The translations under genes and the position numbers were made by a program. Below are positions 4,384-24,890 of a stretch of 35,104 nucleotides of DNA, one piece after another. This DNA is from Pseudomonadota bacterium. Lineage in GTDB: Bacteria; UBA10199; 2-02-FULL-44-16; JAAZCA01. The stretch is taken from NCBI GenBank assembly GCA_043798915.1, contig JAZDOG010000038.1:1-35104 (forward strand), in the 5' to 3' direction. The notes under the pieces were generated by a model, which had not been told where the DNA came from, made no database searches, and was given only the letters and a program-made list of their open reading frames with translations. Within the stretch, counting starts at the first letter, position 1; each line of letters opens with the position of its first letter.

Positions 4384-4675
4384 GATCACGGATTGATTCG
4401 CTGACAGCCTGGAAACCGCCCCCCAAAAACCGCTTGCCCATCACTCCAGGCAGGGCTATGCAACCCTCCCGTTTGAGCTCAAGATCGAGCGGCTCAAACT
4501 GCAAGATTCGGGGCGCCTTGAGATTCAGGCTGAGATGAGAGATGACAATATCCGTAAAAGTAAAAAACGGGGAACGGGCCGGCGAGCGGGCAATGCTTAA
4601 GGAATCTCTCTCTGCATTGGGCAGAATGAGCGTTGCGCAGATAAGGACGGGTTTCAGGCCGGAGGTCTTCAATGC

Positions 4676-5050
4676 CGCAAAAAGGAGATCACCGCATTCC
4701 AGTCGTGCCCCGGGGGCGCGGTGTTTCTCATGACGCTCAAGACCGGCGGCATGGGGCTCAACCTCACGAAGGCGACATATGTCTTCCACATAGAGCCGTG
4801 GTGGAACCCGGCGGTCGAGAATCAGGCGACCGACCGGACGCACCGGATCGGCCAGACGAGGCACGTGCAGGTGTACCGCTATCTGATGGAGGAATCGGTC
4901 GAACAGAAGATAGAAATTCTCAAGGAGCGCAAGCAGGCGCGTTTTTCGGCCCTCTTCGGCCAGGCGGAGGGGGAGGCGGATATTTCAAGATCCTCCGGAG
5001 GGCTCACGAAAAACGATTTTGATTACCTGCTTGCGGATGACGGGAAATGA
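4676..5050 (+). pseudogene. C-terminal remnant of an SNF2-family helicase
   Basis: RKKEITAFQSCPGGAVFLMTLKTGGMGLNLTKATYVFHIEPWWNPAVENQATDRTHRIGQ covers helicase motifs V-VI. The frame is closed by TAA at 4598-4600 and no Walker A/DEAH half is present. Confidence 0.8.
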
Positions 5051-5200
5051 AAACCCGTCAGACGGAGCAAAATTATTGCCAAATAGCTTGATAATTCAGC
5101 AAGTTAATAGCTAATTTGAGCACCCAAATCCATCATGTGCTATTTCAACCATAGGCAAAAAAGATTGCATATTTATTTGCTTTGAGGTAAAAAAGATTAC

Positions 5201-6370
5201 ATGCAGATAAAAAGGTATTTGCACGATCCTGTGGAGCAGGACCTCGCGCAAAAGATGGTCTTCCTGGCAGGGCCGAGGCAAGTCGGGAAAACCACCCTTG
5301 CAAAAGAGATAATGGCCGAATCGGGCAACGGGCTCTACTATTTGTGGGACAGCAAAGAGGATCGCCAGGCGCTTATGAAACCAAGGTGGCCGGCAGAACC
5401 TTCCACTGTTGTTCTGGACGAGCTCCACAAATACCGCAGGTGGAAGCAGTGGATCAAAGGCGAATACGACAAACACAAAGAGCACATAAGATTCATTGTG
5501 ACAGGAAGCGCCCGGATGGACATCTACCGGAAAGGTGGAGATTCGCTTCAGGGCAGATATCACCATTGGCGTCTTCACCCGTTCAGCGTGAATGAGCTGG
5601 AAGGTGTGACGCCACAGGTATCCCCCGCGGCACCGCTGACATTTTCCAGCAAACGGAAGGAAGATCAGCTCGCCGCGCTATTTCGTTTTGGCGGATTTCC
5701 GGAACCGATTGTCGCGCAGTCTGAAAAAACGCACAGGCGATGGGAAAAGGAGAGGCTGGAGCGGTTCTTCAGGGAGGACCTGCGCGATCTTGAAAACGTG
5801 CGCGACATCTCGTCACTGCAGATACTCTCTGACATGTTGCCGTCGCGCGTCGGATCTCCGCTATCCCTGAATTCTCTCCGGGAAGACCTCGAGGTGAGCC
5901 ACAAGGCGGTGACGCACTGGATGGAAGTGTTTGAGAGGCTCTATTTTCTGTTCAGGCTTCGTCCATACACGACAAGCGCTATCAGGGGGCTCAAGAAGGA
6001 GGCGAAGGCCTACCTTTGGGATTGGTCGCTTGTGAAAGACAAGGGTCCTCGATTTGAAAACATGATCGCTTCGCATCTCCTGAAATTCTGCCACTACCTT
6101 GAGGACAGCGAAGGCTACAAGATGGATCTTTATTACATGCGCGATGTGGCGAAGAGGGAAGTGGATTTCCTGGTGACGATCGACAGGAAGCCGTGGTTTG
6201 CGGTTGAGGCGAAGGTCGCATCAGACACGATCTCACCGGACCTCAAATATTTTGGCGACAGGCTGAAGATACCGTATCTGTTTCAAGTCACATTCGACGG
6301 GGGGCGCGAATTTGTGGAAAACGGCGTTCATCTATTGCCAGCGGCCAAATTCCTGACTGCGCTTGTTTAA
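5201..6370 (+). CDS. AAA+ ATPase with DUF4143-type C-terminal nuclease-fold domain
   Basis: Walker A GPRQVGKTT, Walker B VVLDELH, TGSA, SLQGR, FGGFPEP, FEN, C-terminal EVDFLV..AVEAK. Confidence 0.9.
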   Translation: MQIKRYLHDPVEQDLAQKMVFLAGPRQVGKTTLAKEIMAESGNGLYYLWDSKEDRQALMKPRWPAEPSTVVLDELHKYRRWKQWIKGEYDKHKEHIRFIVTGSARMDIYRKGGDSLQGRYHHWRLHPFSVNELEGVTPQVSPAAPLTFSSKRKEDQLAALFRFGGFPEPIVAQSEKTHRRWEKERLERFFREDLRDLENVRDISSLQILSDMLPSRVGSPLSLNSLREDLEVSHKAVTHWMEVFERLYFLFRLRPYTTSAIRGLKKEAKAYLWDWSLVKDKGPRFENMIASHLLKFCHYLEDSEGYKMDLYYMRDVAKREVDFLVTIDRKPWFAVEAKVASDTISPDLKYFGDRLKIPYLFQVTFDGGREFVENGVHLLPAAKFLTALV

Positions 6371-6384
6371 CCCGTCAGGCTGTC

Positions 6385-8286
6385 TTATCCCTTCGCCGTC
6401 GAGCAGCAGCCGTAGTTTTCCGGGATGCTGAATTTTTCAGCGGAGTTTTTGCCGCAGCTGTAGTCCTTCGCGACGATCTTCGGGAGCGACGGGTCGGCCG
6501 GGAAGCGCTTCGCGCGGTTGGCCGAGGCGTGCGGATTGCCATCCTCGCGATATTCATTGAGGCCCGTCGTCTTCTGCTTCTCCTCCACTCGCTCGCGGTA
6601 ATAGGGCCCGGAGTTATAAGAGCAGAACGGATACATCTTCCCGTCTGGCGCCGACTGATGGATCACGCAGCGGCGGACGCGCTCGGTGTCGTAGTTGTAT
6701 TTGTCCTGGAAGTGCATGCCGGCGACGAAGATCGTGTTGTAGCTGTAGGTGCGCTCGGCGTCAGGCTTCCTTCCGCGCTCCGTGTTCTTGTAGCCGTCCA
6801 TCACGCCCAGGAGCCTCTTGAATGTGAGGCCGGAGGGAGCCTTCTTCTCGTCGAAGTGGCGCTTCAGGACGCGCAACGCCCTCGCCCCTCCCACGAGGTC
6901 GGCCGAGCGCGAGATCCCCACCATCGACATGGCCTTGTACCACCACCTGTTCCGGCGGGCCGCCGTCTTTTCAGCCAGGTGCTGCAGGTCGACGAGCGCC
7001 TGCCTCAAGCTGAAAAACCGCGTGAGCGGCAGCACCTCGGAGTGATCGTCCGGATTGATGAAGAGATATCCGCCGCCGCCGCAATCGGGATGGCAGGAGA
7101 CGAAGAAGGCCGCCTTGCCGGAGAGCGCCTCGGAGAGCCTCGACAGCGGCTGGGTGGCGCCCAGCGAGAACCAGTTGTCGCGCGGCATCATGCTTCCGGT
7201 CTGGCCTTCGATATCCGCCGCCAGGTGCGTGATCGTGTAGCGCTGCTCCATCCGGTCCTTCTCCGAGATCCGCCCGGTGAAACAGACTGGCTGGAAGCTG
7301 ATGCCGGAGATGACGTCGGAATTGTCGCAGGCAAATTGGGTGATGGCGCCCACCTGATGGTCGTTGATCCCGCGGATGATCGTTGGGACCAGGACGATCC
7401 GGAGCCCAACCTTGCGGCACACTTCGAGCACCTGCAGTTTGACATCCAGCACCTCTTCGGCGCGCGTCTTTTTGTAGATATCGTCGGTCACGCCGTCGAA
7501 CTGGAGATAGAGCGTGTTGAGCCCCGCCTCTTTGCAACGGCGCGCGAAGTCGAGGTCGGAGAGGTTCTTGCCGTTTGTGGCGATCTGTATCTGCGAGAAC
7601 CCCATCTCCTTCGTCATCTTGAGGATCTCGATGAACTTCGGATGGATCGTGGGCTCCCCTCCAGAAAACTGTATCACCTTGCACGGAACGGGCCTGCGGT
7701 CGCGGAGGGTAGCGAGCATCGCCCTCACCTCTTCGATGGGCGGCTCGGTGACATAGCCCATGGAGTTGGCGTTGGCGAAGCACACGGGGCAGCGCATGTC
7801 GCAGCGGTTGGTGAGGTCGATGTTGGACATACATGTGTGCGAGTGGTGCATGTTGCAGATGCCGCAGTTCTCCGGGCACTCCTTGCCCGAGTCGGCCTGG
7901 GTTAGCGGGTTAGTGAACCCGCGGTTGTCGCCGAAGCGGAACGTGAAAAACTGCATGTAGAAATCGACATCCGGCGAGATGAGCTCGCGGAAGTAGCCGT
8001 GCTCCTCGCACTCCTTCTCCATGTAGACGATCTTCCCTTCGGCGAACTTGCGGGCCCGGATCACCTTGCCGCACTCAGGGCAGAGGGAACTCGTCCAATA
8101 GGGAAGCGTCCATGGGACCTCCCTGATCGGATGGCCGGAATAGGTCATTTTGGGTTGGTGCTTGTTGAGGAAGGCAGGCCTGATTGAGCCGCGCACCGTC
8201 TTCGTGCCATCCACACCCATTGCGCTATCCTGACCCAGCTCCACGGCCGGTTCGGCCCCCAAACTCGCTCCACTGCGAGGATTCAT
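6385..8286 (-). CDS. Radical SAM enzyme of the tetraether lipid synthase (Tes/GDGT-MAS, MJ0619) family
   Basis: Rubredoxin-like CPEC...CEEHG; auxiliary CPENCGICNMH; radical SAM DLTNRCDMRCPVCFANA; QFSGGEPT, IATNG, YLQFDG, FQPVCFTGR, HPDCG, MHFQDKYNYD..RVRRCVIH..PDG..PFCSYN. Full Tes-like architecture; RBS AGGAG upstream. Confidence 0.85.
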   Translation of the reverse strand: MNPRSGASLGAEPAVELGQDSAMGVDGTKTVRGSIRPAFLNKHQPKMTYSGHPIREVPWTLPYWTSSLCPECGKVIRARKFAEGKIVYMEKECEEHGYFRELISPDVDFYMQFFTFRFGDNRGFTNPLTQADSGKECPENCGICNMHHSHTCMSNIDLTNRCDMRCPVCFANANSMGYVTEPPIEEVRAMLATLRDRRPVPCKVIQFSGGEPTIHPKFIEILKMTKEMGFSQIQIATNGKNLSDLDFARRCKEAGLNTLYLQFDGVTDDIYKKTRAEEVLDVKLQVLEVCRKVGLRIVLVPTIIRGINDHQVGAITQFACDNSDVISGISFQPVCFTGRISEKDRMEQRYTITHLAADIEGQTGSMMPRDNWFSLGATQPLSRLSEALSGKAAFFVSCHPDCGGGGYLFINPDDHSEVLPLTRFFSLRQALVDLQHLAEKTAARRNRWWYKAMSMVGISRSADLVGGARALRVLKRHFDEKKAPSGLTFKRLLGVMDGYKNTERGRKPDAERTYSYNTIFVAGMHFQDKYNYDTERVRRCVIHQSAPDGKMYPFCSYNSGPYYRERVEEKQKTTGLNEYREDGNPHASANRAKRFPADPSLPKIVAKDYSCGKNSAEKFSIPENYGCCSTAKG

Positions 8287-8345
8287 GATTTTTCTCCTTT
8301 TTGGTCAGTCTTTTCGTTCTTGCGTTCAGAACATCCTGAACGTTG

Positions 8346-8486: not shown

Positions 8487-8654
8487 ATGAAAGTCGTCAG
8501 GATAACGATGCTGGTCCTGGCCCTCGCAATGGCGGTCGGAAGCGTGTTGGCGATGTTACCGCCGGACACCTTCAAGGACCCCATCTTCGCGTCCCAGGAC
8601 GGCTCAGGCGACAGCGGAGGCTCCGATTCTGGCGGGGTCACCGAATTTGCCTGA
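8487..8654 (+). CDS. Small secreted protein (55 aa), unknown function
   Basis: RBS GGAGG before the ATG; MKVVRITMLVLALAMAVGSVLA resembles a Sec signal; acidic Gly/Ser-rich mature part; GC3-rich codons like the host genes. Confidence 0.7.
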   Translation: MKVVRITMLVLALAMAVGSVLAMLPPDTFKDPIFASQDGSGDSGGSDSGGVTEFA

Positions 8655-8699: not shown

Positions 8700-9425
8700 T
8701 CACCCTTTTTCACCCACAGGTTCCATCCCCAGCATCTTCATCACATTCTGCATGTCTTCCCATGCCGGCTTCTTCATGGCGGGATTCCGGAGCAGAAAGG
8801 CCGGATGGTAGGTGGGCATCACCGGGATATCGTGCCACATCGCGAACTTGCCCCTGAGCCGGGTGATCTTTTCCTCGGTGCCGAGGAGGTTTTGCGTGGC
8901 CACGCTCCCCAGACAGACGATGACTTTGGGTTCGATGATCTCCGCCTGTTTGATGAGCCAGGGCATGCACGCGGCGACCTCGTCCGGCTCGGGATTCCTG
9001 TTGCTCGGAGGCCTGCACTTGCAGATATTCGCTATGTAGACGTCCTCCCTCTTGAAACCCATCGCCAGGATGATCTTGGTGAGCAGCTGGCCGGCCCGGC
9101 CGACGAAGGGGATTCCCTGTTCGTCTTCATCGGCGCCCGGGGCCTCGCCGATGAACATGAGGTCGGCGTCCGGATTTCCCACTCCGAAGACAAGGTTCTT
9201 GCGTCCGCGCCCAAGTTTGCATTTCAGGCACTCGCCCGTCTCCGCCCGGAGTTTCTCCAGCGCTTTCGCCTTGTCGCCGGCCGTGCCTGTTTTCTGTTTT
9301 CTGTTCTCTGTTTTCCGGTTTCCGGTTTCTGACTCTTCAGAATCGCGAACCTCGGTCATCCCCAAGGTCTTCGCGTATTCAAGCAGGTTCTTCACATCCT
9401 CGAGCACCTCGCGTCTGTCGGCCAT
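8700..9425 (-). CDS. Uracil-DNA glycosylase, family 4 (Fe-S type)
   Basis: CLKCKL, VFGVGNP, IGEAPGADED..G.PFVGRAG, NICKCRPPSNRNP, TYHPAFLLRNP. Confidence 0.96.
   Translation of the reverse strand: MADRREVLEDVKNLLEYAKTLGMTEVRDSEESETGNRKTENRKQKTGTAGDKAKALEKLRAETGECLKCKLGRGRKNLVFGVGNPDADLMFIGEAPGADEDEQGIPFVGRAGQLLTKIILAMGFKREDVYIANICKCRPPSNRNPEPDEVAACMPWLIKQAEIIEPKVIVCLGSVATQNLLGTEEKITRLRGKFAMWHDIPVMPTYHPAFLLRNPAMKKPAWEDMQNVMKMLGMEPVGEKG
9287..9328. repeat. Six tandem heptamers, in frame within the UDG linker
   Basis: CTGTTTT CTGTTTT CTGTTCT CTGTTTT CCGGTTT CCGGTTT (42 nt, 14 codons). Confidence 0.8.
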
Positions 9426-9454: not shown

Positions 9455-10396
9455 ATGCGTCGGACTATAATGACATGCATGCTCCTTGTCCACGCCGTAT
9501 TGGCGGCCCTTTGCATCCTGTTTCTGCCCTCCATCGCCCATGCCTGGGGGCCCGGCATGCACGTGGAGACGGCGCTCGCGGCCATCGCGAAGGTCTCCCT
9601 CGCCGCGCCGTTCATCCGCGAGCTCATCCGCCGCTTTCCCGACGCCTTCATCTACGGCGCCACAAGCCCCGACATCGTGGTCGGCAAGAAGTACGCGGGC
9701 TATCTCCACCACTGCCACAACTGGAGGATCGGCTGGCTGATCCTCCACGAAGCGAAGAGCGACTGCCAGCGGGCGGCGGCCTACGGCTATCTCATGCATC
9801 TGGCCGCGGACGTCGTCGGCCACAACTACTACATACCGGTCAAGATCGTCCGGAGCTACACGGCGAGGCTCCTCTCCCACACCTACTGGGAGATGCGTTT
9901 CGACCTGGGCGTCTCGGACGAGGCATGGAGGCGCATCAAGAAGGTGCGCCACGAAAACATCGAGGAGTTCGACAGTCTGCTCGAGCGCGTGCTCAGCAAG
10001 ACGCTCTTCTCCTTCTCGACCAACAAGAGGATATTCAACACCATCCTGATACTGCAGAAGATGCAGGGCCTGCGATCGAGCCTCAAGCTCTACGCCTCCC
10101 ACTCGCGCTTCGGCATCGAGGATGAGAACCGCCGGCACTACGCCGACCTGACGATGGAATCGACGATGGAATTTCTCGCCCACCCTGAGAGCGCCGCGTG
10201 CCTGCATGTAGATCCGACCGGCGTCCGGCGGCTCGCCTATGCCAAGGACCTGCGCAGAAATTTGAGGGCGATGATGGGCCGCGGGCTCCTTTCAGAAGAG
10301 CGGGCCCGCGTCTTCGTGGAACTCGTGAAGGAGCAGCTGGCGGTGGGGCTCTATCGGCCGGAGATGAAGCTTCCTGTTGTGGCCGATGTGCTCTGA
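9455..10396 (+). CDS. Zinc-dependent phospholipase C family protein (start codon uncertain)
   Basis: Signal peptide then A-WGPGMH; GATSPD, HHCHNW, GYLMHLAADVVGHN, HTYWE metal-ligand pattern. Confidence 0.85.
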   Translation: MRRTIMTCMLLVHAVLAALCILFLPSIAHAWGPGMHVETALAAIAKVSLAAPFIRELIRRFPDAFIYGATSPDIVVGKKYAGYLHHCHNWRIGWLILHEAKSDCQRAAAYGYLMHLAADVVGHNYYIPVKIVRSYTARLLSHTYWEMRFDLGVSDEAWRRIKKVRHENIEEFDSLLERVLSKTLFSFSTNKRIFNTILILQKMQGLRSSLKLYASHSRFGIEDENRRHYADLTMESTMEFLAHPESAACLHVDPTGVRRLAYAKDLRRNLRAMMGRGLLSEERARVFVELVKEQLAVGLYRPEMKLPVVADVL

Positions 10397-10474: not shown

Positions 10475-11758
10475 ATGTTCACCTTCTTCACCGAGATCAC
10501 CAAAAAGGATGCCGTGGATCGCTACGGCAGGTGGATCGGCCGGCCCTATGACTTCACCGTAAAACTCGACGAGACCTATCCCCGCGTCACATCGCTCATC
10601 ACCGCAAGCGGAATCCTGCGCAAGACTTTCTATGTGATTCCCTGGAAGGACCTCCACCAGACCCCGGACGGCTTTCAGCTCAAGGTCCCCATCGAGTCCC
10701 TGGAACCCAGGCGTTCCTATCGCGCGCCCGAAGAGGCCACGCTGCGCGCGGCCGTGCTCGACCAGCAGGTGGTCGACACGTTCAACCGCAAGGTGGTTCG
10801 CGTAAACGACCTCCACTTTCTGCGCGTCGACGACGACCTCCGGCTCGCGCACGTCGACATCGGCGTCAGGGGCCTGGTGAGAAGGCTTGGCCTCGAGCGC
10901 ATCGTGGACGGCATGGTCCGGTTCTTCAACAGGCACGCGAGATACCTGACGAGCGACGCCTTGATCTCGTGGAAATACGTCCAGCCTCTCTCGATACATT
11001 CGGCGACCGGCAAGATTCAGCTCACGGTCGAGATGGATCAGTTAAAGCAGATCCCGCCGCCCGACATCTCCACCATGCTGATGGAGCTCGACCCCTATCA
11101 GCGCGCCGCGCTCCTCAAGACGCTGGATGTCGGGACGCAGGTGGACATCATCACGGAGCTCGACCTCAAGTGGCAGAAGGATCTCATCGAAGGGTTGGAC
11201 GTCAACGCGGCCTCGGCCCTCTTCGAGAGAATGCCGGCCGACGAAGCGACAGACCTCCTGCGCATGCTCTCCAACAAGGAGGCCGATCGCATACTCGGCC
11301 TGCTCTCTCCCAAAAAGTCGCGCGAGCTCTCGGAACTCATGGTGCACGAATCCGATTCGGCCGGCGGCCTCATGACCACCGAGTTCATCGCGCTCAGGGA
11401 GTCGATGACGGTCGGCGATGCCATCGAACACATCCGCCACAGCGCCGCACATAAGAAGGCGGAGACGATTCATAATGCGTTCGTCATCGACGGCGATGGC
11501 ACGCTCATCGGGACGGTGTCGTTCCGCAAGCTCCTGTTCGAGCAGTTGGAGGCCAGGATTAGCGACGTCATGCAGCGAAAACCGCCCGTCGTTAATGTGA
11601 CCGACTCCGTCAAGGAAGTCGCCTACGCGATGGACAAATACAACCTCTTCACGCTCCCGGCGGTGGATGAAAACGGCGTCCTCGAAGGCATAATCACCGT
11701 CGACGACGTCCTCCACATAGCCGTGGAAGAGGCGTGGGGAAAGAGGACCGGAATCTGA
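10475..11758 (+). CDS. Soluble PRC-barrel/MgtE N-terminal/CBS-pair protein
   Basis: LDQQVVDTFNRKVVRVNDL, MPADEATDLL, SAGGLMTTEF, CBS pair, GIITVDDV; no MgtE transmembrane domain. Confidence 0.88.
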   Translation: MFTFFTEITKKDAVDRYGRWIGRPYDFTVKLDETYPRVTSLITASGILRKTFYVIPWKDLHQTPDGFQLKVPIESLEPRRSYRAPEEATLRAAVLDQQVVDTFNRKVVRVNDLHFLRVDDDLRLAHVDIGVRGLVRRLGLERIVDGMVRFFNRHARYLTSDALISWKYVQPLSIHSATGKIQLTVEMDQLKQIPPPDISTMLMELDPYQRAALLKTLDVGTQVDIITELDLKWQKDLIEGLDVNAASALFERMPADEATDLLRMLSNKEADRILGLLSPKKSRELSELMVHESDSAGGLMTTEFIALRESMTVGDAIEHIRHSAAHKKAETIHNAFVIDGDGTLIGTVSFRKLLFEQLEARISDVMQRKPPVVNVTDSVKEVAYAMDKYNLFTLPAVDENGVLEGIITVDDVLHIAVEEAWGKRTGI

Positions 11759-13023
11759 TGGAACTCCGCACCCGCGAACAGAAGCTCAAGCCGGCGGCCC
11801 CGAAGGGGATGTGGACCCATCTCGCAATCTTCTTCGCTGTGCTGGGCCCTGGGATAATCACTGCCAACGTCGACAACGACGCGGGCGGGATCGCCACGTA
11901 TTCGATCGCTGGCGCGCACTTCGGATACGACTTCCTCTGGGTCATACTGCCCGTCTGCTTCGCCCTCATCGTCATACAGGAGATGAGCGCGCGCATGGGG
12001 GCGGTGACCGGCAAGGGACTCTCCGACTTGATCCGCGAGAACTACGGCGCGAAGGTCACCTTCTACGTCATGCTGGCGCTGCTCATCACCAACATGGGCA
12101 ACGTGATGGCTGAGTTTGCCGGTGTGGCGAGTTCGCTCGAGATCTTCGGGATATCGAAGTACATCACCGTGCCCGCCGCGGCGATCTTCGTCTGGCTCCT
12201 CGTCGTCAAAGGGACCTACAAGACGGTGGAGAAGGTATTCCTCATCGCCTGCCTCTTCTACGTCGCCTATGTCGTCTCGGGGTTCATGGCCAGGCCGGAC
12301 TGGGGCCGGGTCGCCTCGGAGATAGTGGTGCCCCGTTTCAGGATGAACGGGCCTTACCTCTACATGCTGATCGGGATCGTGGGCACAACGATCGCGCCCT
12401 GGATGCAGTTCTACCAGCAGGCGGCGATCGTCGAGAAGGGGATCGATGTCGAGACATACCGGCACGCGCGATGGGACGTCATAATCGGATGCATAATGGC
12501 CGGCATAGTCGTATTCTTCATCGTCGTCGCCTGCGCCGCGACCATATTCCCGGCCGGCGGGCACGTGGAGACAGCGGCGGACGCCGCGGTGGCGCTGAAG
12601 CCGCTCGCCGGAAAATACTGCTCCTGGCTCTTCGCCTTCGGCCTCTTCAATGCGTCGCTCTTCGCGGCATCTGTCCTGCCGCTGTCGACCGCCTACTACG
12701 TCTGCGAGGGGCTGGGCTTCGAGGCCGGGGTGAACAAGAAGTTTAAGGAAGCGCCTCAATTCTACGGTCTCTTCACCGCGATCATCATCGTGGGCGCAAT
12801 CGTCATCCTGATCCCGGGATTTCCGCTCTTCTTCATCATGGTCTTCTCACAGGTGATCAACGGCATCCTGCTCCCCTTCATCCTCATCTTCATGCTCATG
12901 CTCATCAACCGCGAGGATATCATGGGCACATGGACGAACGGCCGCATCTGGAACGCAGTTTCGTGGTTCACAGCGTTCGCTATGATCGCCCTGACGATAG
13001 GCATGTTCGCAGCTTATTTTTAA
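11758..13023 (+). CDS. Nramp-family divalent metal transporter, probably of the Mg2+-transporting NRMT type
   Basis: Polytopic membrane protein; GPGIITANVDNDAGG in place of canonical DPGN, QEMSARMGAVTGKG, GTTIAPW. ATG overlaps the upstream TGA. Confidence 0.88.
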   Translation: MELRTREQKLKPAAPKGMWTHLAIFFAVLGPGIITANVDNDAGGIATYSIAGAHFGYDFLWVILPVCFALIVIQEMSARMGAVTGKGLSDLIRENYGAKVTFYVMLALLITNMGNVMAEFAGVASSLEIFGISKYITVPAAAIFVWLLVVKGTYKTVEKVFLIACLFYVAYVVSGFMARPDWGRVASEIVVPRFRMNGPYLYMLIGIVGTTIAPWMQFYQQAAIVEKGIDVETYRHARWDVIIGCIMAGIVVFFIVVACAATIFPAGGHVETAADAAVALKPLAGKYCSWLFAFGLFNASLFAASVLPLSTAYYVCEGLGFEAGVNKKFKEAPQFYGLFTAIIIVGAIVILIPGFPLFFIMVFSQVINGILLPFILIFMLMLINREDIMGTWTNGRIWNAVSWFTAFAMIALTIGMFAAYF

Positions 13024-14688: not shown

Positions 14689-15040
14689 TTTTTGTTGTGC
14701 CTTTTTGCCCCTGCCCTGGTGGTTCTGAATCCCACATTTCTCGATAGGCTTGGACATAGGAGATCGCAGCTGAGGGGTTGATATCATAATAGTAGCGGCA
14801 GAGTTTTTTGTAGAGAAGGAGCACGTTCGGATCAAAGCTAAAATCGAGCAACCCATCCAAAGTATGTTCAATATGCTTGTTATCACTGCATCCTGTAGAC
14901 AGGATATCCTCTACAACAGGCACATACTCCTGAACCGCCCGACGGGCAAGGTGTTGCGTAGCCCGCGCCAACTCGACAATTGATTGCTTGGCAGCAAGTC
15001 TTCTTCTCATGGATAAAATCCCCAGATTGCCATCGATCAT
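14684..15040 (-). CDS. Hypothetical protein (118 aa)
   Basis: ATGA overlap with the upstream Bro-N gene; helical, protein-like sequence (HTLDGLLDF..LLLYKKLCRYY..YVQAYREMWD). Confidence 0.75.
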   Translation of the reverse strand: MIDGNLGILSMRRRLAAKQSIVELARATQHLARRAVQEYVPVVEDILSTGCSDNKHIEHTLDGLLDFSFDPNVLLLYKKLCRYYYDINPSAAISYVQAYREMWDSEPPGQGQKGTTKT

Positions 15041-15870
15041 ATTTTTTTCAGAAGCTTTTTGTCAGTTGGCTTATGGAGATAGTTTTTGGAGGTGACAACC
15101 TTGGCGCCAGTTTCTATCTCCAATTTCTTTCTCGCATCTCCGGCAATCTTGCCGCCTGATCGTGCGACTCGCTTATTTTCATCAAAACCCTGAGCATCCT
15201 TCCTTCTTGCTATCTCCGTGGTCGAAGCCTCGCCAAGCATTGAAAAAATAAGTTCAAGGTCCGTCATGTGATCACGCAAGTTTTCGCGATCAAGCCCTTT
15301 GTGTTCTTTATACTCACTTGGTGTCATACCAAAAGCGGCCTTTGAGATCTCGGCCGTCAATATCGAATATTCCCTTTGTTCCTCAATTCCTCTTTTCTGC
15401 CACTCATCCGTCAATTCTTCACGGACAGCAATGCCTCGAATCCTTTTTTCGATCCATGCAGCAGGATAACCCTTTGCCTTGTATATTGCCTTCGTTCGCC
15501 TCGTGGCTATCTCTGGGTCTTCGATCTCCTGGATACGTTCATAACCGACCTTGGCAAGCCATCTTTTGAATGGTTCTGCTTTGGGGGATGGGATCGATTG
15601 GACAACGCGAAACACGGTTTCGGTATTGGCGCAATCCGTCTCATAGTACTTGCCATCCGATGAGATCAATTTCAGTTGTACGATTTTATCGTACAACTCG
15701 GTGAATCCCTCTTTTTCCTTTAGATTTCGTTTTAAGTCCGACCAATAGCGTCTTGGATTGGCACTCTCGGTCAATACTTCCACAACATCGATTATCGAGA
15801 ACCACCATTCACCCTTATGGATGATTTTCCTGATCTCCTCCCCCCTAAAGATAGCAATTCTTGTCTCCAT
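15037..15870 (-). CDS. Bro-N domain DNA-binding protein (phage antirepressor-like)
   Basis: IAIFRGEEIRK..WWFSIIDVVEVLT..RRYWSDLK, QSIPSPKAEPFKRWLA, NLRDHMTDLEL; RBS GGAGG. Confidence 0.9.
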   Translation of the reverse strand: METRIAIFRGEEIRKIIHKGEWWFSIIDVVEVLTESANPRRYWSDLKRNLKEKEGFTELYDKIVQLKLISSDGKYYETDCANTETVFRVVQSIPSPKAEPFKRWLAKVGYERIQEIEDPEIATRRTKAIYKAKGYPAAWIEKRIRGIAVREELTDEWQKRGIEEQREYSILTAEISKAAFGMTPSEYKEHKGLDRENLRDHMTDLELIFSMLGEASTTEIARRKDAQGFDENKRVARSGGKIAGDARKKLEIETGAKVVTSKNYLHKPTDKKLLKKI

Positions 15871-16004
15871 GAAGGCCCTCCTATCATTTCATATATCCAA
15901 ACAGTCTTTATCTCAACCAAATTATCAATGTATTATGCATAGTTATGTCCATTTTGCAGACTTATAAGTTTCTTTCTTAGCAGCTTCCTCACAATCCGGG
16001 ATAA

Positions 16005-16120
16005 AGCAAGAATCGTTCCAAGAGCAGGCCTCTTCTATCTTGTTGATATGCTTATGTTCTGGTCCTTGGCCGGAAAAGATTGGTGCATCGTTTCGATGCA
16101 GCCTGCATCAAAAATGGGCA
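16005..16120 (-). promoter_or_regulatory. Sigma54-type -24/-12 promoter with upstream NtrC-like palindromes
   Basis: Minus strand TTGGAACGATTCTTGCT (GG-N10-GC) at 16005-16021; TGCATCGTTTCGATGCA at 16084-16100 and TGCATCAAAAATGGGCA at 16104-16120. Confidence 0.5.
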
Positions 16121-16147
16121 ACGGGTGGACTAAAAAAGGGGCCCGAA

Positions 16148-16192
16148 CCGGATAGACAGGTAACACTTTGATCCGGGGACATGGGTGACACT
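16148..16192. mobile_element. Possible IS481-family terminal remnant
   Basis: Two 20-nt direct repeats at 25-nt period (CCGGATAGACAGGTAACACT / CCGGGGACATGGGTGACACT) that resemble IS481-type subterminal repeats as I recall them. No transposase is adjacent. Confidence 0.4.
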
Positions 16193-16229
16193 ATGGAGGG
16201 TGCACCGTTTTTTGTGGAGCTGGGAAAGA

Positions 16230-16284
16230 CCCGCAGACCGGCCAAAAGCGAGGCGTTGCACTGCCTCCCCACGCGGCGTATAAA
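16230..16284 (+). promoter_or_regulatory. Duplicated sigma70-type promoter block, copy 1
   Basis: TTGCAC-17 nt-TATAAA within a ~52-nt block repeated at 16711-16765. Confidence 0.65.
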
Positions 16285-16311
16285 ATGTGCAATATTACTA
16301 TGCGCATCCGA

Positions 16312-16677
16312 ATGAAGAGAGCCTTTATTTTATTGTTGGCGCCCCTTGTTTTATTTGGCGCCTCTATAATTTCTTGCGCAAAAGTCTCTTTGCCCGAAAC
16401 AGCTGCGTTCGGCAAAGTTCAAAACTTGCCTGAAGTCCAATTATTTATGGCCAAGGTCAATAAGGCTGGAAATGATGTCAGGCCAATCATCAGGCAGGAA
16501 GAAAGCGACGCGAGCAGCGGCAATCTCATTGAGTTCTATGTTGGAGAGTCTCATCCAACACACAATGTGCTTTGGAACAGGTTTGCTGTCGATAAAACAA
16601 CGACACAGATTTTTGTTTTTGATGCAGAATCAGGTGAATATGTTTCGATTGAAGATTGGAGGAACAAACTGAAGTGA
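16312..16677 (+). CDS. Putative lipoprotein, unknown function
   Basis: MKRAFILLLAPLVLFGASIISC has a signal peptide with a lipobox-like Cys; AT-rich codon usage. Start chosen at ATG 16312. Confidence 0.7.
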   Translation: MKRAFILLLAPLVLFGASIISCAKVSLPETAAFGKVQNLPEVQLFMAKVNKAGNDVRPIIRQEESDASSGNLIEFYVGESHPTHNVLWNRFAVDKTTTQIFVFDAESGEYVSIEDWRNKLK

Positions 16678-16710
16678 TCCGTCATGCTCGTTTGCCAAGC
16701 CCGGCAAAAC

Positions 16711-16765
16711 CCCGCAAACCGGCTCAAAGCGAGGCATTGCACTGCCTCCCCCGGCGGCGTATGAA
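16711..16765 (+). promoter_or_regulatory. Duplicated sigma70-type promoter block, copy 2
   Basis: TTGCAC-17 nt-TATGAA, upstream of the dinD-like fragment. Confidence 0.6.
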
Positions 16766-16802
16766 TTGCGAAATTCGGGCGGTTCAAAATGCGAGGTGAA
16801 GT

Positions 16803-17042
16803 ATGAAGAAAGAACTTATTGTGAGACTTCATCAGAGCTTCGATGCCATTGCCAACGAAAAAAATGGAGTTGAGTATTGGCTGGCGCGGGAACTTCAGAC
16901 GTTGCTGGAATACACTGAATGGCGAAATTTTGTGCAGGTCATCGATAAGGCCAAGACAACATGTATAACAGCAGGGCAGGCCATTTCTGACCATTTTGTT
17001 GACGTCAACAAAATGGTTCCATTGGGTTCTGGGAGCGAGCGA
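16803..17042 (+). pseudogene. Truncated DinD-like (Bro-N) gene
   Basis: GVEYWLARELQTLLEYTEWRNF..VIDKAK..C..G..DHFVDVNKMVPLGSGSER matches the DinD N-terminus. Similarity stops at about 17042 and the frame runs on into repeat DNA until 17135. Confidence 0.8.
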
Positions 17043-17110
17043 AACAATAAAGGGGGTCATAAAGGGGGTCAAGTCTGGACATTGGACAGTCGGTTTCTTT
17101 ATTTGGACAA

Positions 17111-17338
17111 GGAGCGAAAAACGAGGATGTGTTAAGGGAGGGGTCGTACGGTGCTAAAAGCGCATTTACGAGACGAACGATGACGAAGTCAAAAGTCGTG
17201 GTGGTTTGGAAACTTAAAGGCCGACAACGGAGGACATTTAAGTTTCACAAACCCACACGACCTTTTGACGAGGAATAGCGAGCGAAGTGCGCCCTGCACC
17301 TACGACCCCTCCCTTACACATCCTCGTTTTTCGCCACG
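17111..17338 (+). mobile_element. ~230-nt hairpin/MITE-like element, copy 2
   Basis: Reverse complement of 14417-14646 with scattered substitutions, several of them compensatory. Confidence 0.8.
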
Positions 17339-24084: not shown

Positions 24085-24783
24085 CTACTCCGGCGGGCCC
24101 GTCATGCGGATTGTCATCGCGTCAGTCACTTTCCTGCCGAGCCGTTCGCACAGCTCACGGTACTTCTTCAGCACCCAGTCAGGGTCCCCAATGAAATTGG
24201 TGTGTGAGATATTCAGCAACTTCCTATTTTCAATCAGCACCTCCACAATTGCCCGGTACTCGCTCCGGCGTTCTTGGGGATCCCTCCCCAAAGCCAAATA
24301 TGAAGTTGAAGGTGTGATCAGCGGATCGGCCTTGCCGTAGGCATAATATTTGTACGAGGACCACGTGTTCTTGCGTGGATGAGGCACTTTTTTCACCCTG
24401 TGTTGATTGAGATCGATATACGCCATAGCAGTGAGCATATGTTCGTCGGATTCGATCAACGGGGATTTGAACCGGTCCATCACCACTTGGCCGCGTCTCT
24501 TGAGCTGCTTGTTTACGATCCTGGCGAACTGACTGTTCACCACACGGAAGAAAGCGGAAAACTTCTCCTTCTCGTGCAGATGTCCGGTCAGATGGGGGTG
24601 GTTGTCCATGAAATTGTAGGCGTAGAATTCAACACCGTACTTATCCTTATATTTGAGCAAGAGGTCATAGTAGGCGCGTTTTGCCCAGTCCCACTGGAGC
24701 AGCCAGTCCTCGTTATGGCACTGCCAGGTGACGTGGAAGAAGGCGTCGTCGTAGATGATCTCGTATCTTGGTAGGTAGGCCAT
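24085..24783 (-). mobile_element. Y1 (HUH) transposase, REP-associated tyrosine transposase (RAYT)-like
   Basis: FHVTWQCHN, AYNFMDNHPHL (HUH), RRGQVVMDRFKS, catalytic YIDLN, WSSY. Likely start is ATG 24783. Confidence 0.9.
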
Positions 24784-24796
24784 GCCTGATGGATAT

Positions 24797-24890
24797 AGCA
24801 AAAGGCATGCCAAGTAGGGCCATCAATATAATCGTTTCTAAGAGGCATTAGCGGAAAATCGTGTCAATGCCGGTGCTGCGTTTCGATGCA
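24797..24890 (-). promoter_or_regulatory. Sigma54-type promoter and upstream NtrC-like site for the Y1 transposase
   Basis: Minus strand TTGGCATGCCTTTTGCT (GG-N10-GC) at 24797-24813; TGCTGCGTTTCGATGCA at 24874-24890. Confidence 0.55.

Follow-up and report, generated by a model that had tools for sequence, protein, structure and literature searches.

A bacterial tetraether lipid synthase homolog with glutamine at the position of an archaeal active-site tyrosine, in a host without a detectable fatty-acid or lipid A pathway

The archaeal tetraether lipid synthase (Tes) MJ0619, also called GDGT-MAS (7TOL, 7TOM; PMC9433317, PMC8941075), is a four-domain radical S-adenosylmethionine (SAM) enzyme with four metal sites, and the two-SAM radical chemistry with a carbon-sulfur intermediate is, in the published accounts available, known for this archaeal enzyme only. 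Zeng et al. are cited for 456 bacterial Tes homologs, and 281 metagenome-assembled genomes from the Black Sea are reported to carry Tes homologs whose activity is stated to be unconfirmed (PMC11868695); acidobacterial members (Koribacter, Solibacter usitatus) have been proposed as synthases of brGDGTs, the branched kind of glycerol dialkyl glycerol tetraethers (PMC8941075, PMC10087280). Radical SAM coupling of fatty-acyl tails, the kind of reaction proposed below, is reported for a different family, Mss (Thermoanaerobacter ethanolicus WP_129545148.1; Thermotoga maritima Tmari_0825), which is described as only remotely related to Tes and as occurring in genomes without a Tes homolog (PMC13159169). 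Here we describe a gene at positions 6385 to 8286 on the minus strand of contig JAZDOG010000038.1 (assembly GCA_043798915.1, Pseudomonadota bacterium; "the window" is the whole stretch of 35,104 nt), which a first-pass annotation, made from the sequence alone, had called a bacterial Tes homolog.

Like MJ0619, the encoded protein has the four-domain fold, the four metal sites and the methionine equivalent to Met439, at approximately 35% structure-aligned identity, but it differs in having Gln in place of Tyr459 and in being extended by approximately 60 aa at either terminus, with a Cys-Cys tail at the end. The features of the gene are as follows:

6385..8286, minus strand: Tes/GDGT-MAS family radical SAM gene, 633 aa (NF045702 524.4 bits; 7TOL E 7e-110; single copy in the genome)
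8294..8298, minus strand: ribosome-binding site AGGAG, 7 nt upstream of the ATG (sequence)
7999..8082, minus strand: rubredoxin-like mononuclear Fe site C69/C72/C93/H96 (MJ0619 spacing match; PF23545)
7846..7878, minus strand: predicted N-terminal auxiliary [4Fe-4S] ligands C137/C141/C144/H147 (motif and 7TOL alignment)
7780..7803, minus strand: radical SAM cluster motif C162/C166/C169 (motif)
6622..7083, minus strand: C-terminal auxiliary cluster region with C402, M524 (= Met439), C540 and C555 (invariant in 36/36 aligned proteins)
6655..6657, minus strand: Gln544 at the MJ0619 Tyr459 position in the active-site tunnel, a clade-specific change (alignment)
6388..6411, minus strand: conserved C-terminal tail bearing a Cys-Cys pair, modelled with low confidence, pLDDT <50 (alignment and model)

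The open reading frame (ORF) is intact and genuine, begins at the same point as in close relatives (71–83% identity, aligned homologs), and has a G+C content at third codon positions of 0.85. A promoter scan gave four promoter-like sites versus 0.6 expected, and the minus-strand site at 8491-8463 could serve the gene; a terminator scan gave no terminator-like site on the minus strand. The gene is native to the host genome, since it is the only one of 14 radical SAM matches to NF045702 to exceed the cut-off and its neighbourhood recurs in relatives.

The score against the Tes profile NF045702 (NCBIfam) lies well over the cut-off of 450 and covers profile positions 2–483 of 486, and the score against the TrsS radical SAM (seleno)protein profile NF045646 (342.8, cut-off 490) lies below. 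The best sequence match in the PDB is GDGT-MAS 7TOL, followed by MoaA with an E-value of 1.7e-08. An AlphaFold2 model built from a 36-sequence alignment (pLDDT 84.4, pTM 0.88) superimposed on 7TOL with a TM-score of 0.90 by target, with Z 37.4 and a root-mean-square deviation of 2.3 Å over 479 aligned residues, the next entry having a Z of 17.1. The metal-site motifs occur in the order given by the first-pass annotation (rubredoxin-like, CxxxCxxCxxH, radical SAM, then HPDCG, MHFQD, RC and PFC), with the C69-x2-C72-x20-C93-x2-H96 spacing identical to C9X2C12X20C33X2H36 of MJ0619, and both N-terminal motifs together were found in 0 of 20,000 shuffles of the protein. The C-terminal motifs supply C402 (HPDCG), M524 (MHFQD), C540 (RC) and C555 (PFC), of which the three cysteines are probably ligands of the C-terminal cluster, as judged from their conservation and the description of a three-Cys, one-Met site in the archaeal enzyme. 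Sequence and model together indicate that the protein is a full-length member of the Tes/GDGT-MAS family, as first annotated. The kind of gene is already known; what is new is the active-site variant and the apparently lipid-dependent host without lipopolysaccharide (LPS).

MJ0619 residues were placed on the query by hand from the 7TOL alignment (chain number minus 20). Ten of the 11 residues named for MJ0619 as contacts of SAM, 5′-deoxyadenosine or methionine are identical (Phe106, Gly145, Tyr195, Asp199, Arg210, Val236, Thr238, Gln268, Thr273 and Arg275, MJ0619 numbering), the backbone contact Ser271 is Cys335 here, and Met439 corresponds to Met524. Tyr459 is replaced by Gln544, a change that the first-pass annotation had not mentioned. 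In the 93-row alignment this column holds Gln in 11/16 and His in 5/16 proteins of the query clade, and Tyr in 69/69 other Tes-like proteins (eight distant rows were not counted); among the 120 matches listed it holds Tyr in 64, Gln in 41 and His in 13, with two unread, and the Cys-Cys tail accompanies 45/54 Gln/His-type and 0/64 Tyr-type proteins in the same list. According to Lloyd et al., Tyr459 lies at a distance of 4.2 Å from the end of the chain and is invariant across 1,000 archaeal homologs, and the Y459F and Y459L variants of MJ0619 are still active; because the residue is dispensable for catalysis in MJ0619, it is a family marker and not a requirement. Speculatively, the change to Gln may give the tunnel a shape suited to chain ends other than phytanyl. 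As a proxy for the lipid pockets, we counted hydrophobic alignment columns against a reference of 21 archaeal-type rows (one from a Bacteroides-labelled contig that groups with Methanomassiliicoccales), and 126/144 archaeal-hydrophobic columns were hydrophobic here (0.875), versus 0.75 in distant Tes-like proteins.

Trees were built with FastTree on 93 rows and with IQ-TREE (LG+G4) on 40 of these, the rows being free of fragments, duplicates, one intein-length row, approximately 30 close relatives, MJ0619 and Mss, and the two trees were concordant. The query clade (100/99) and its Tyr-bearing sisters lie inside a bacterial group (100/99) with acidobacterial Tes and the long-branched type 2 proteins described below, and archaeal Tes rows branch outside this group. 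A 100/100 branch separates all of these from the sampled distant Tes-like proteins of the phylum, which are without the C-terminal cluster ligand pattern, and the query groups with acidobacterial and archaeal Tes, apart from these distant proteins. Acidobacterial Tes shares with the query the bacterial branch, 45–50% identity, the motif set and co-occurrence with PlsA/Ger-like proteins, but keeps the tyrosine in 21/21 proteins. Some Acidobacteria contigs (L014, L027, L028) carry type 1-like and type 2 genes on the same strand, 1–4 kb apart, and archaeal Tes of the Methanomassiliicoccales type (L047, L051, L054, L058, L076) are also without the N-terminal auxiliary-cluster ligands in the alignment.

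We surveyed 93 genomes of the host phylum, probably GTDB UBA10199, with NF045702 at E ≤1e-40; these are non-independent kin and mostly drafts, 63 of them at least 90% complete. Matches were found in 64 genomes, of which 15 have a type 1 protein (over the cut-off; families f1, f3, f4 and f11), 47 a type 2 protein (divergent and below the cut-off, three or four being partial at contig ends) and two distant homologs only, leaving 29 with none; types 1 and 2 occurred together in none of the 93. Type 1 proteins are 62–81% identical across the four families. The NCBI records of close homologs carry the names 'bacterium', 'Proteobacteria bacterium', 'Deltaproteobacteria bacterium' and 'Pseudomonadota bacterium'. 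Type 2 proteins keep the rubredoxin, radical SAM and C-terminal ligands of the query, but differ from it in lacking the CxxxCxxCxxH ligands (21/21 aligned), in keeping the tyrosine, in scoring below the cut-off and in their long branch. Their gene adjoins one for a CDP-alcohol phosphatidyltransferase, in either orientation, in 17 of the 23 genomes examined (e.g. L136:8440-11410, L134:8638-11605), and no other genomic tie to lipid metabolism is as clear, although it belongs to the paralog and not to the query. Elsewhere in the query host, contig C53 (L196:4961-12243) carries genes for a porin, a small radical SAM protein (encoded on the other strand), a fusion of a CDP-alcohol phosphatidyltransferase with a type I phosphodiesterase domain, a helix-turn-helix regulator and an OPT transporter, the transferase being 41% identical to one beside type 2 Tes in other genomes. 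In another genome of the phylum (G083, contig C216; L183), three distant Tes-like radical SAM genes are clustered with FabF- and FabZ-like genes, which by its content reads as a dedicated lipid operon in a phylum otherwise without type II fatty-acid synthesis (FAS II).

The host genome (2.34 Mb, 97.2% complete, 3.3% contaminated) was searched by blastp with 38 E. coli proteins against all its open frames (E 1e-4). No match was found in these frames for AccA, AccB, AccC, AccD, FabD, FabH, FabF, FabB, FabZ, PlsX, LpxA, LpxB or LpxC, nor for ClsA, Psd, DgkA, FadL, LplT, UbiA or RpmF; LpxD gave a weak partial match only, FabG and FabI matched generic short-chain reductases only, and the controls DnaE, RnhB and TruA were recovered. 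As the RpmF and UbiA misses show that blastp can overlook short or divergent genes, the key absences were rechecked with hidden Markov models, which found no FabH, FabZ, PlsY, carboxyltransferase, E1 dehydrogenase or geranylgeranylglyceryl phosphate synthase (GGGPS) in the host genome. The acpP gene is retained with ilvC and rpiB-glyA-nrdR as neighbours, versus fabG-acpP-fabF in E. coli, and fabF normally lies upstream of rpiB-glyA in deltaproteobacteria. After lolC-lolE-lolD-bamA-skp-skp come a gene for an FHA protein and then yicC, whereas the E. coli order continues with lpxD-fabZ-lpxA-lpxB. At the acpP and bamA-skp loci, the genes of FAS II and of lipid A synthesis thus look to have been lost in place, while envelope genes for BamA, Skp and LolCDE are present. 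Also present are genes for a PlsB-like and two further PF01553 (PlsC-type) acyltransferases, GpsA, CdsA, PgsA, PssA, a long-chain acyl-CoA ligase, an SCP2 protein, beta-oxidation enzymes and Dxr. Across the 93 phylum genomes, LpxC was found in none, FabZ in six, and FabF over the cut-off in one (32 genomes had weaker matches, mostly of polyketide synthase size); in the order, PlsC-type acyltransferases occur in 22/22 genomes and acyl carrier protein in 21/22. The simplest reading of the gene content would be an outer-membrane bacterium without LPS that imports its acyl chains, and the survey suggests that the phylum is an LPS-less, fatty-acid-dependent diderm lineage. In the host, the loci noted for this are C8:1-5271 (L167) and C35 (L199:3892-12413). 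A literature search, with the phylum name inferred, returned no described lineage of this kind without FAS II and lipid A.

Other sources of lipid chains were considered. Archaeal-type lipid synthesis in the host was rejected, with no GGGPS and a MenA-like gene as the only member of the UbiA family. Host contig C28 (L169:4134-8168) holds genes for a thiolase, an enoyl-CoA hydratase, an archaeal-type thiolase and a DUF35 protein in one run, the latter pair resembling the thiolase/DUF35 pair reported for archaeal acyl-CoA metabolism (bioRxiv 10.1101/2024.07.05.601840). DUF35 was found in only 6/22 genomes of the order, and this route can therefore not be a general replacement of FAS II, but it could still be the host's own means of fatty-acid synthesis. 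Several B12-binding radical SAM proteins of the host were considered as Grs, and none could be assigned. Genes for squalene-hopene cyclase (C76:34418-36388) and HpnH (C66) score over their cut-offs in this host without detectable lipid A genes, indicating hopanoid synthesis. On contig C79 (L221:3-3409), a GlpT/UhpC-type transporter gene, a glycerol-1-phosphate dehydrogenase (G1PDH)-like gene and a HAD hydrolase gene stand in a row, possibly a glycerol-1-phosphate salvage module; the G1PDH-like gene is found in 15/93 phylum genomes and is below the G1PDH cut-off.

The search for ether-lipid genes that the first-pass annotation had proposed gave one Ger/PlsA-like candidate and no GGGPS. It encodes a 1426-aa protein (contig C94) with two BcrAD_BadFG domains followed by DUF2229, the core reported as common to the Ger proteins of alkyl-ether producers (PMC13159169); it showed none of the small HGD-D domains that T. 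maritima Ger has. In a search with a single protein query (E <1e-90), Ger-like proteins were found in 13/15 type 1 versus 1/47 type 2 genomes. An exclusive pairing of type 1 with Ger was nevertheless rejected, as this contrast faded in the DUF2229 family search, and it is not used here as evidence of a partnership.

From the gene, its family, fold and residues and the gene inventory of the host, all shown by the analysis, we infer a substrate, a product and a scavenging lifestyle. On balance, analogy with MJ0619 and the gene content lead us to favour, with some reservation, tail-to-tail C-C coupling of glycerol 3-phosphate (G3P) lipids built from scavenged acyl chains. By this analogy, a first 5′-deoxyadenosyl radical would take a hydrogen from a lipid chain end, the chain radical would be stored by forming a C-S adduct with the C-terminal [4Fe-4S] cluster, and a second SAM would generate a second chain radical that displaces the cluster as the C-C bond is made. 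The substrate would be a G3P phospholipid made from imported fatty acids via the acyl-CoA ligase, PlsB, PlsC, GpsA, CdsA, PgsA and PssA, possibly converted to an ether by the Ger/PlsA-like protein, and the product a non-isoprenoid membrane-spanning or macrocyclic lipid with chains mirroring the scavenged ones. MJ0619 is reported to co-purify with two E. coli ester phospholipids, and acyl lipids therefore fit its pockets. Unlike M. jannaschii, the host has no GGGPS or DGGGPS candidate and therefore cannot build the archaeal substrate; as neither phytanyl nor fatty-acyl synthesis is detectable in it, the substrate is narrowed to imported chains, which suggests that the query tolerates a broad range of chains and that E. 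coli lipids might do.

The first-pass annotation had proposed brGDGTs or diabolic-acid-type lipids as products. The diabolic-acid link is weak, because diabolic acid, like iso-diabolic acid, is made by the unrelated Mss (PMC13159169). In the same report, none of the screened diabolic-acid producers with Mss had a Tes homolog; among acidobacteria that produce iso-diabolic acid, 3/14 did. NF045702 gave no match at E 1e-40 in the T. maritima control, and an equation of Mss with TIGR03960 was refuted by the supplement of the paper, which lists separate proteins. S. usitatus is reported to make iso-C15 ether lipids, whereas the query host has no detectable fatty-acid or branched-primer synthesis, that of iso-C15 included, so that brGDGTs would need imported chains.

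Several points weigh against coupling of scavenged chains as the role of this enzyme. According to PMC11868695, no bacterial Tes homolog has a demonstrated activity, and our literature search, with most subscription papers outside it, found no report of bacterial Tes activity or of a replacement of Tyr459; the validated bacterial synthesis of membrane-spanning lipids is, as reported, that by Mss (PMC13159169). Archaeal MA_1114 is reported to have given only traces of macrocyclic archaeol in a heterologous host, and halobacteria with Tes homologs are described as having no GDGT seen. In the protein itself, glutamine is polar, unlike the Phe and Leu substitutions tested in MJ0619, and 18 of the 144 hydrophobic columns are polar, 11 of them among the 59 in the C-terminal part, where the hydrophobic share (48/59, 0.81) is below that of acidobacterial Tes (0.92) and above that of the distant proteins (0.66). 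The gene is missing in 4/12 family relatives, three of which are 95–99% complete, and is therefore dispensable in the lineage, and no co-oriented lipid-biosynthesis gene lies next to it. The ether candidate is not Tes-specific, DUF2229 being found in 13/15 type 1, 26/47 type 2 and 12/29 Tes-less genomes, and according to PMC11868695 Ger is indistinguishable by sequence from the plasmalogen-forming PlsA, leaving alkyl versus vinyl ether undecidable.

An unlikely but serious alternative is that the enzyme acts on a lipid without joining two tails, in a single radical step such as sulfur transfer from the C-terminal cluster, desaturation or another, possibly on a hopanoid or other isoprenoid. The intermediate of MJ0619 is reported to be a chain-sulfur adduct, the host encodes squalene-hopene cyclase and HpnH, and at positions on which archaeal and acidobacterial Tes agree, the query clade is fixed for other residues (for example 544, Tyr to Gln/His; 153, Leu to Met; 406, Thr to Gly), besides having the Cys-Cys tail. 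However, the ligands of all four metal sites are retained, Tyr459 is reported as unnecessary for coupling in MJ0619, and the Tes gene (contig C31) lies away from the hopanoid genes. We regard as improbable the archaeal reaction on imported archaeal diethers (archaeol to macrocyclic archaeol, or to glycerol trialkyl and dialkyl glycerol tetraethers) in a host that feeds on archaea. Such a reaction would suit a protein over the archaeal Tes cut-off, a host that must obtain hydrophobic chains externally and the G1PDH-like gene beside its GlpT/UhpC-type transporter and HAD hydrolase genes, but the PlsC-type acyltransferases in all genomes of the order point to ordinary G3P acyl lipids, the G1PDH-like gene was found in only 8/15 type 1 genomes, scores below the G1PDH cut-off and could serve phosphatidylglycerol head-group salvage, and nothing here identifies a host or prey. 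There is little to be said for a non-lipid substrate, as perhaps in distant TrsS-type Tes-like clades or following an old pterin-methylase annotation: the neighbours are of housekeeping type and some database labels read 'dihydro-hydroxymethylpterin dimethyltransferase', but the pterin annotation is reported as not corroborated for MJ0619, the score is below the TrsS cut-off, and the distant clades sampled lie beyond the 100/100 branch and are without the C-terminal ligand pattern. Least probable of all is that the enzyme is a relic, weak or active only under certain conditions and of small consequence for the membrane, as suggested by the patchy presence of type 1 (15/93 genomes) and the precedents of the halobacteria and of MA_1114 in its heterologous host, because type 1 frames are open, without internal stops, at the identities found across four families, which indicates purifying selection.

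Two neighbouring genes were annotated upstream of Tes:

8700..9425, minus strand: family-4 uracil-DNA glycosylase (UDG) gene, syntenic neighbour, no functional link proposed (profile)
9455..10396, plus strand: Zn-dependent phospholipase C (Zn-PLC) family gene with a signal-peptide-like N-terminus, syntenic neighbour (PF00882 E 8.8e-21)

The Zn-PLC gene, which the first-pass annotation had placed approximately 1.2 kb from Tes, possibly by chance, starts 1.17 kb away at 9455 on the opposite strand, with the UDG gene between the two. The distance was thus correct, but chance is not the explanation, as the gene belongs to a conserved block (UDG, Zn-PLC, MgtE-like, Nramp) and lies within approximately 4 kb of type 1 Tes in 10/15 genomes of three families, always behind UDG; in two of the five remaining genomes a contig ends <1.4 kb upstream. 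A Zn-PLC gene is found in 75/93 phylum genomes irrespective of Tes, and its adjacency to Tes is therefore old synteny. As a dedicated partner of Tes it was rejected as unproven, being a near-core, divergently oriented gene that travels with the block and was found near type 2 in 0/23 genomes whose flanks were examined. An exported phospholipase would possibly fit lipid scavenging, but nothing links it to Tes specifically. The full set of neighbours comprises UDG, Zn-PLC, an MgtE-like CBS protein, Nramp, CoaBC, a GGDEF protein, SpoIID/LytB and QueA. Transcription of Tes seems to be either on its own or behind the UDG gene.

Several further observations were made in the window. A 55-aa ORF (8487-8654, plus strand), divergent from Tes, has a signal-peptide-like hydrophobic start and a Ser/Gly/Asp-rich tail. 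At 10475-13023, an Nramp transporter follows an MgtE-like N-terminal/CBS protein that has no membrane domain, and relatives have this pair next to Tes as well. Between the GGDEF gene and Tes (4672-6370) lie a C-terminal remnant of an SNF2 helicase gene (4721-5050) and a lower-GC AAA_14/DUF4143 ATPase gene (5201-6370), both of which look like insertions, since GGDEF and Tes adjoin in some relatives. A low-GC stretch at 15037-17135 holds two genes of Bro-N/DinD-like type; farther on, at 24085-24813, lies a REP-associated tyrosine transposase-like gene.

The use of brGDGTs as palaeoclimate proxies is limited by uncertainty over the products of bacterial Tes homologs. The query lends itself well to a test, as a single-copy protein that has all metal sites of the structurally solved enzyme and departs from it at one active-site residue already characterised. 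More tentatively, and as a whole rather unlikely, an uncultured outer-membrane phylum may have lost FAS II and lipid A and may weld chains scavenged from other cells, by either of two mutually exclusive Tes enzymes (62/93 genomes) and in many cases aided by a Ger-like reductase, into membrane-spanning (ether) lipids that replace the LPS barrier; the Tyr-to-Gln clade would then be Tes adapted to the ends of fatty-acyl chains, and these bacteria a source of brGDGT-like lipids that has gone unrecognised. If this is true, the brGDGT-like chain pattern would reflect the food of these bacteria, and not their own response to temperature or pH. Separately, an envelope that keeps BamA, Skp and LolCDE but is made, throughout a phylum, without FAS II and lipid A would be of unusual design.

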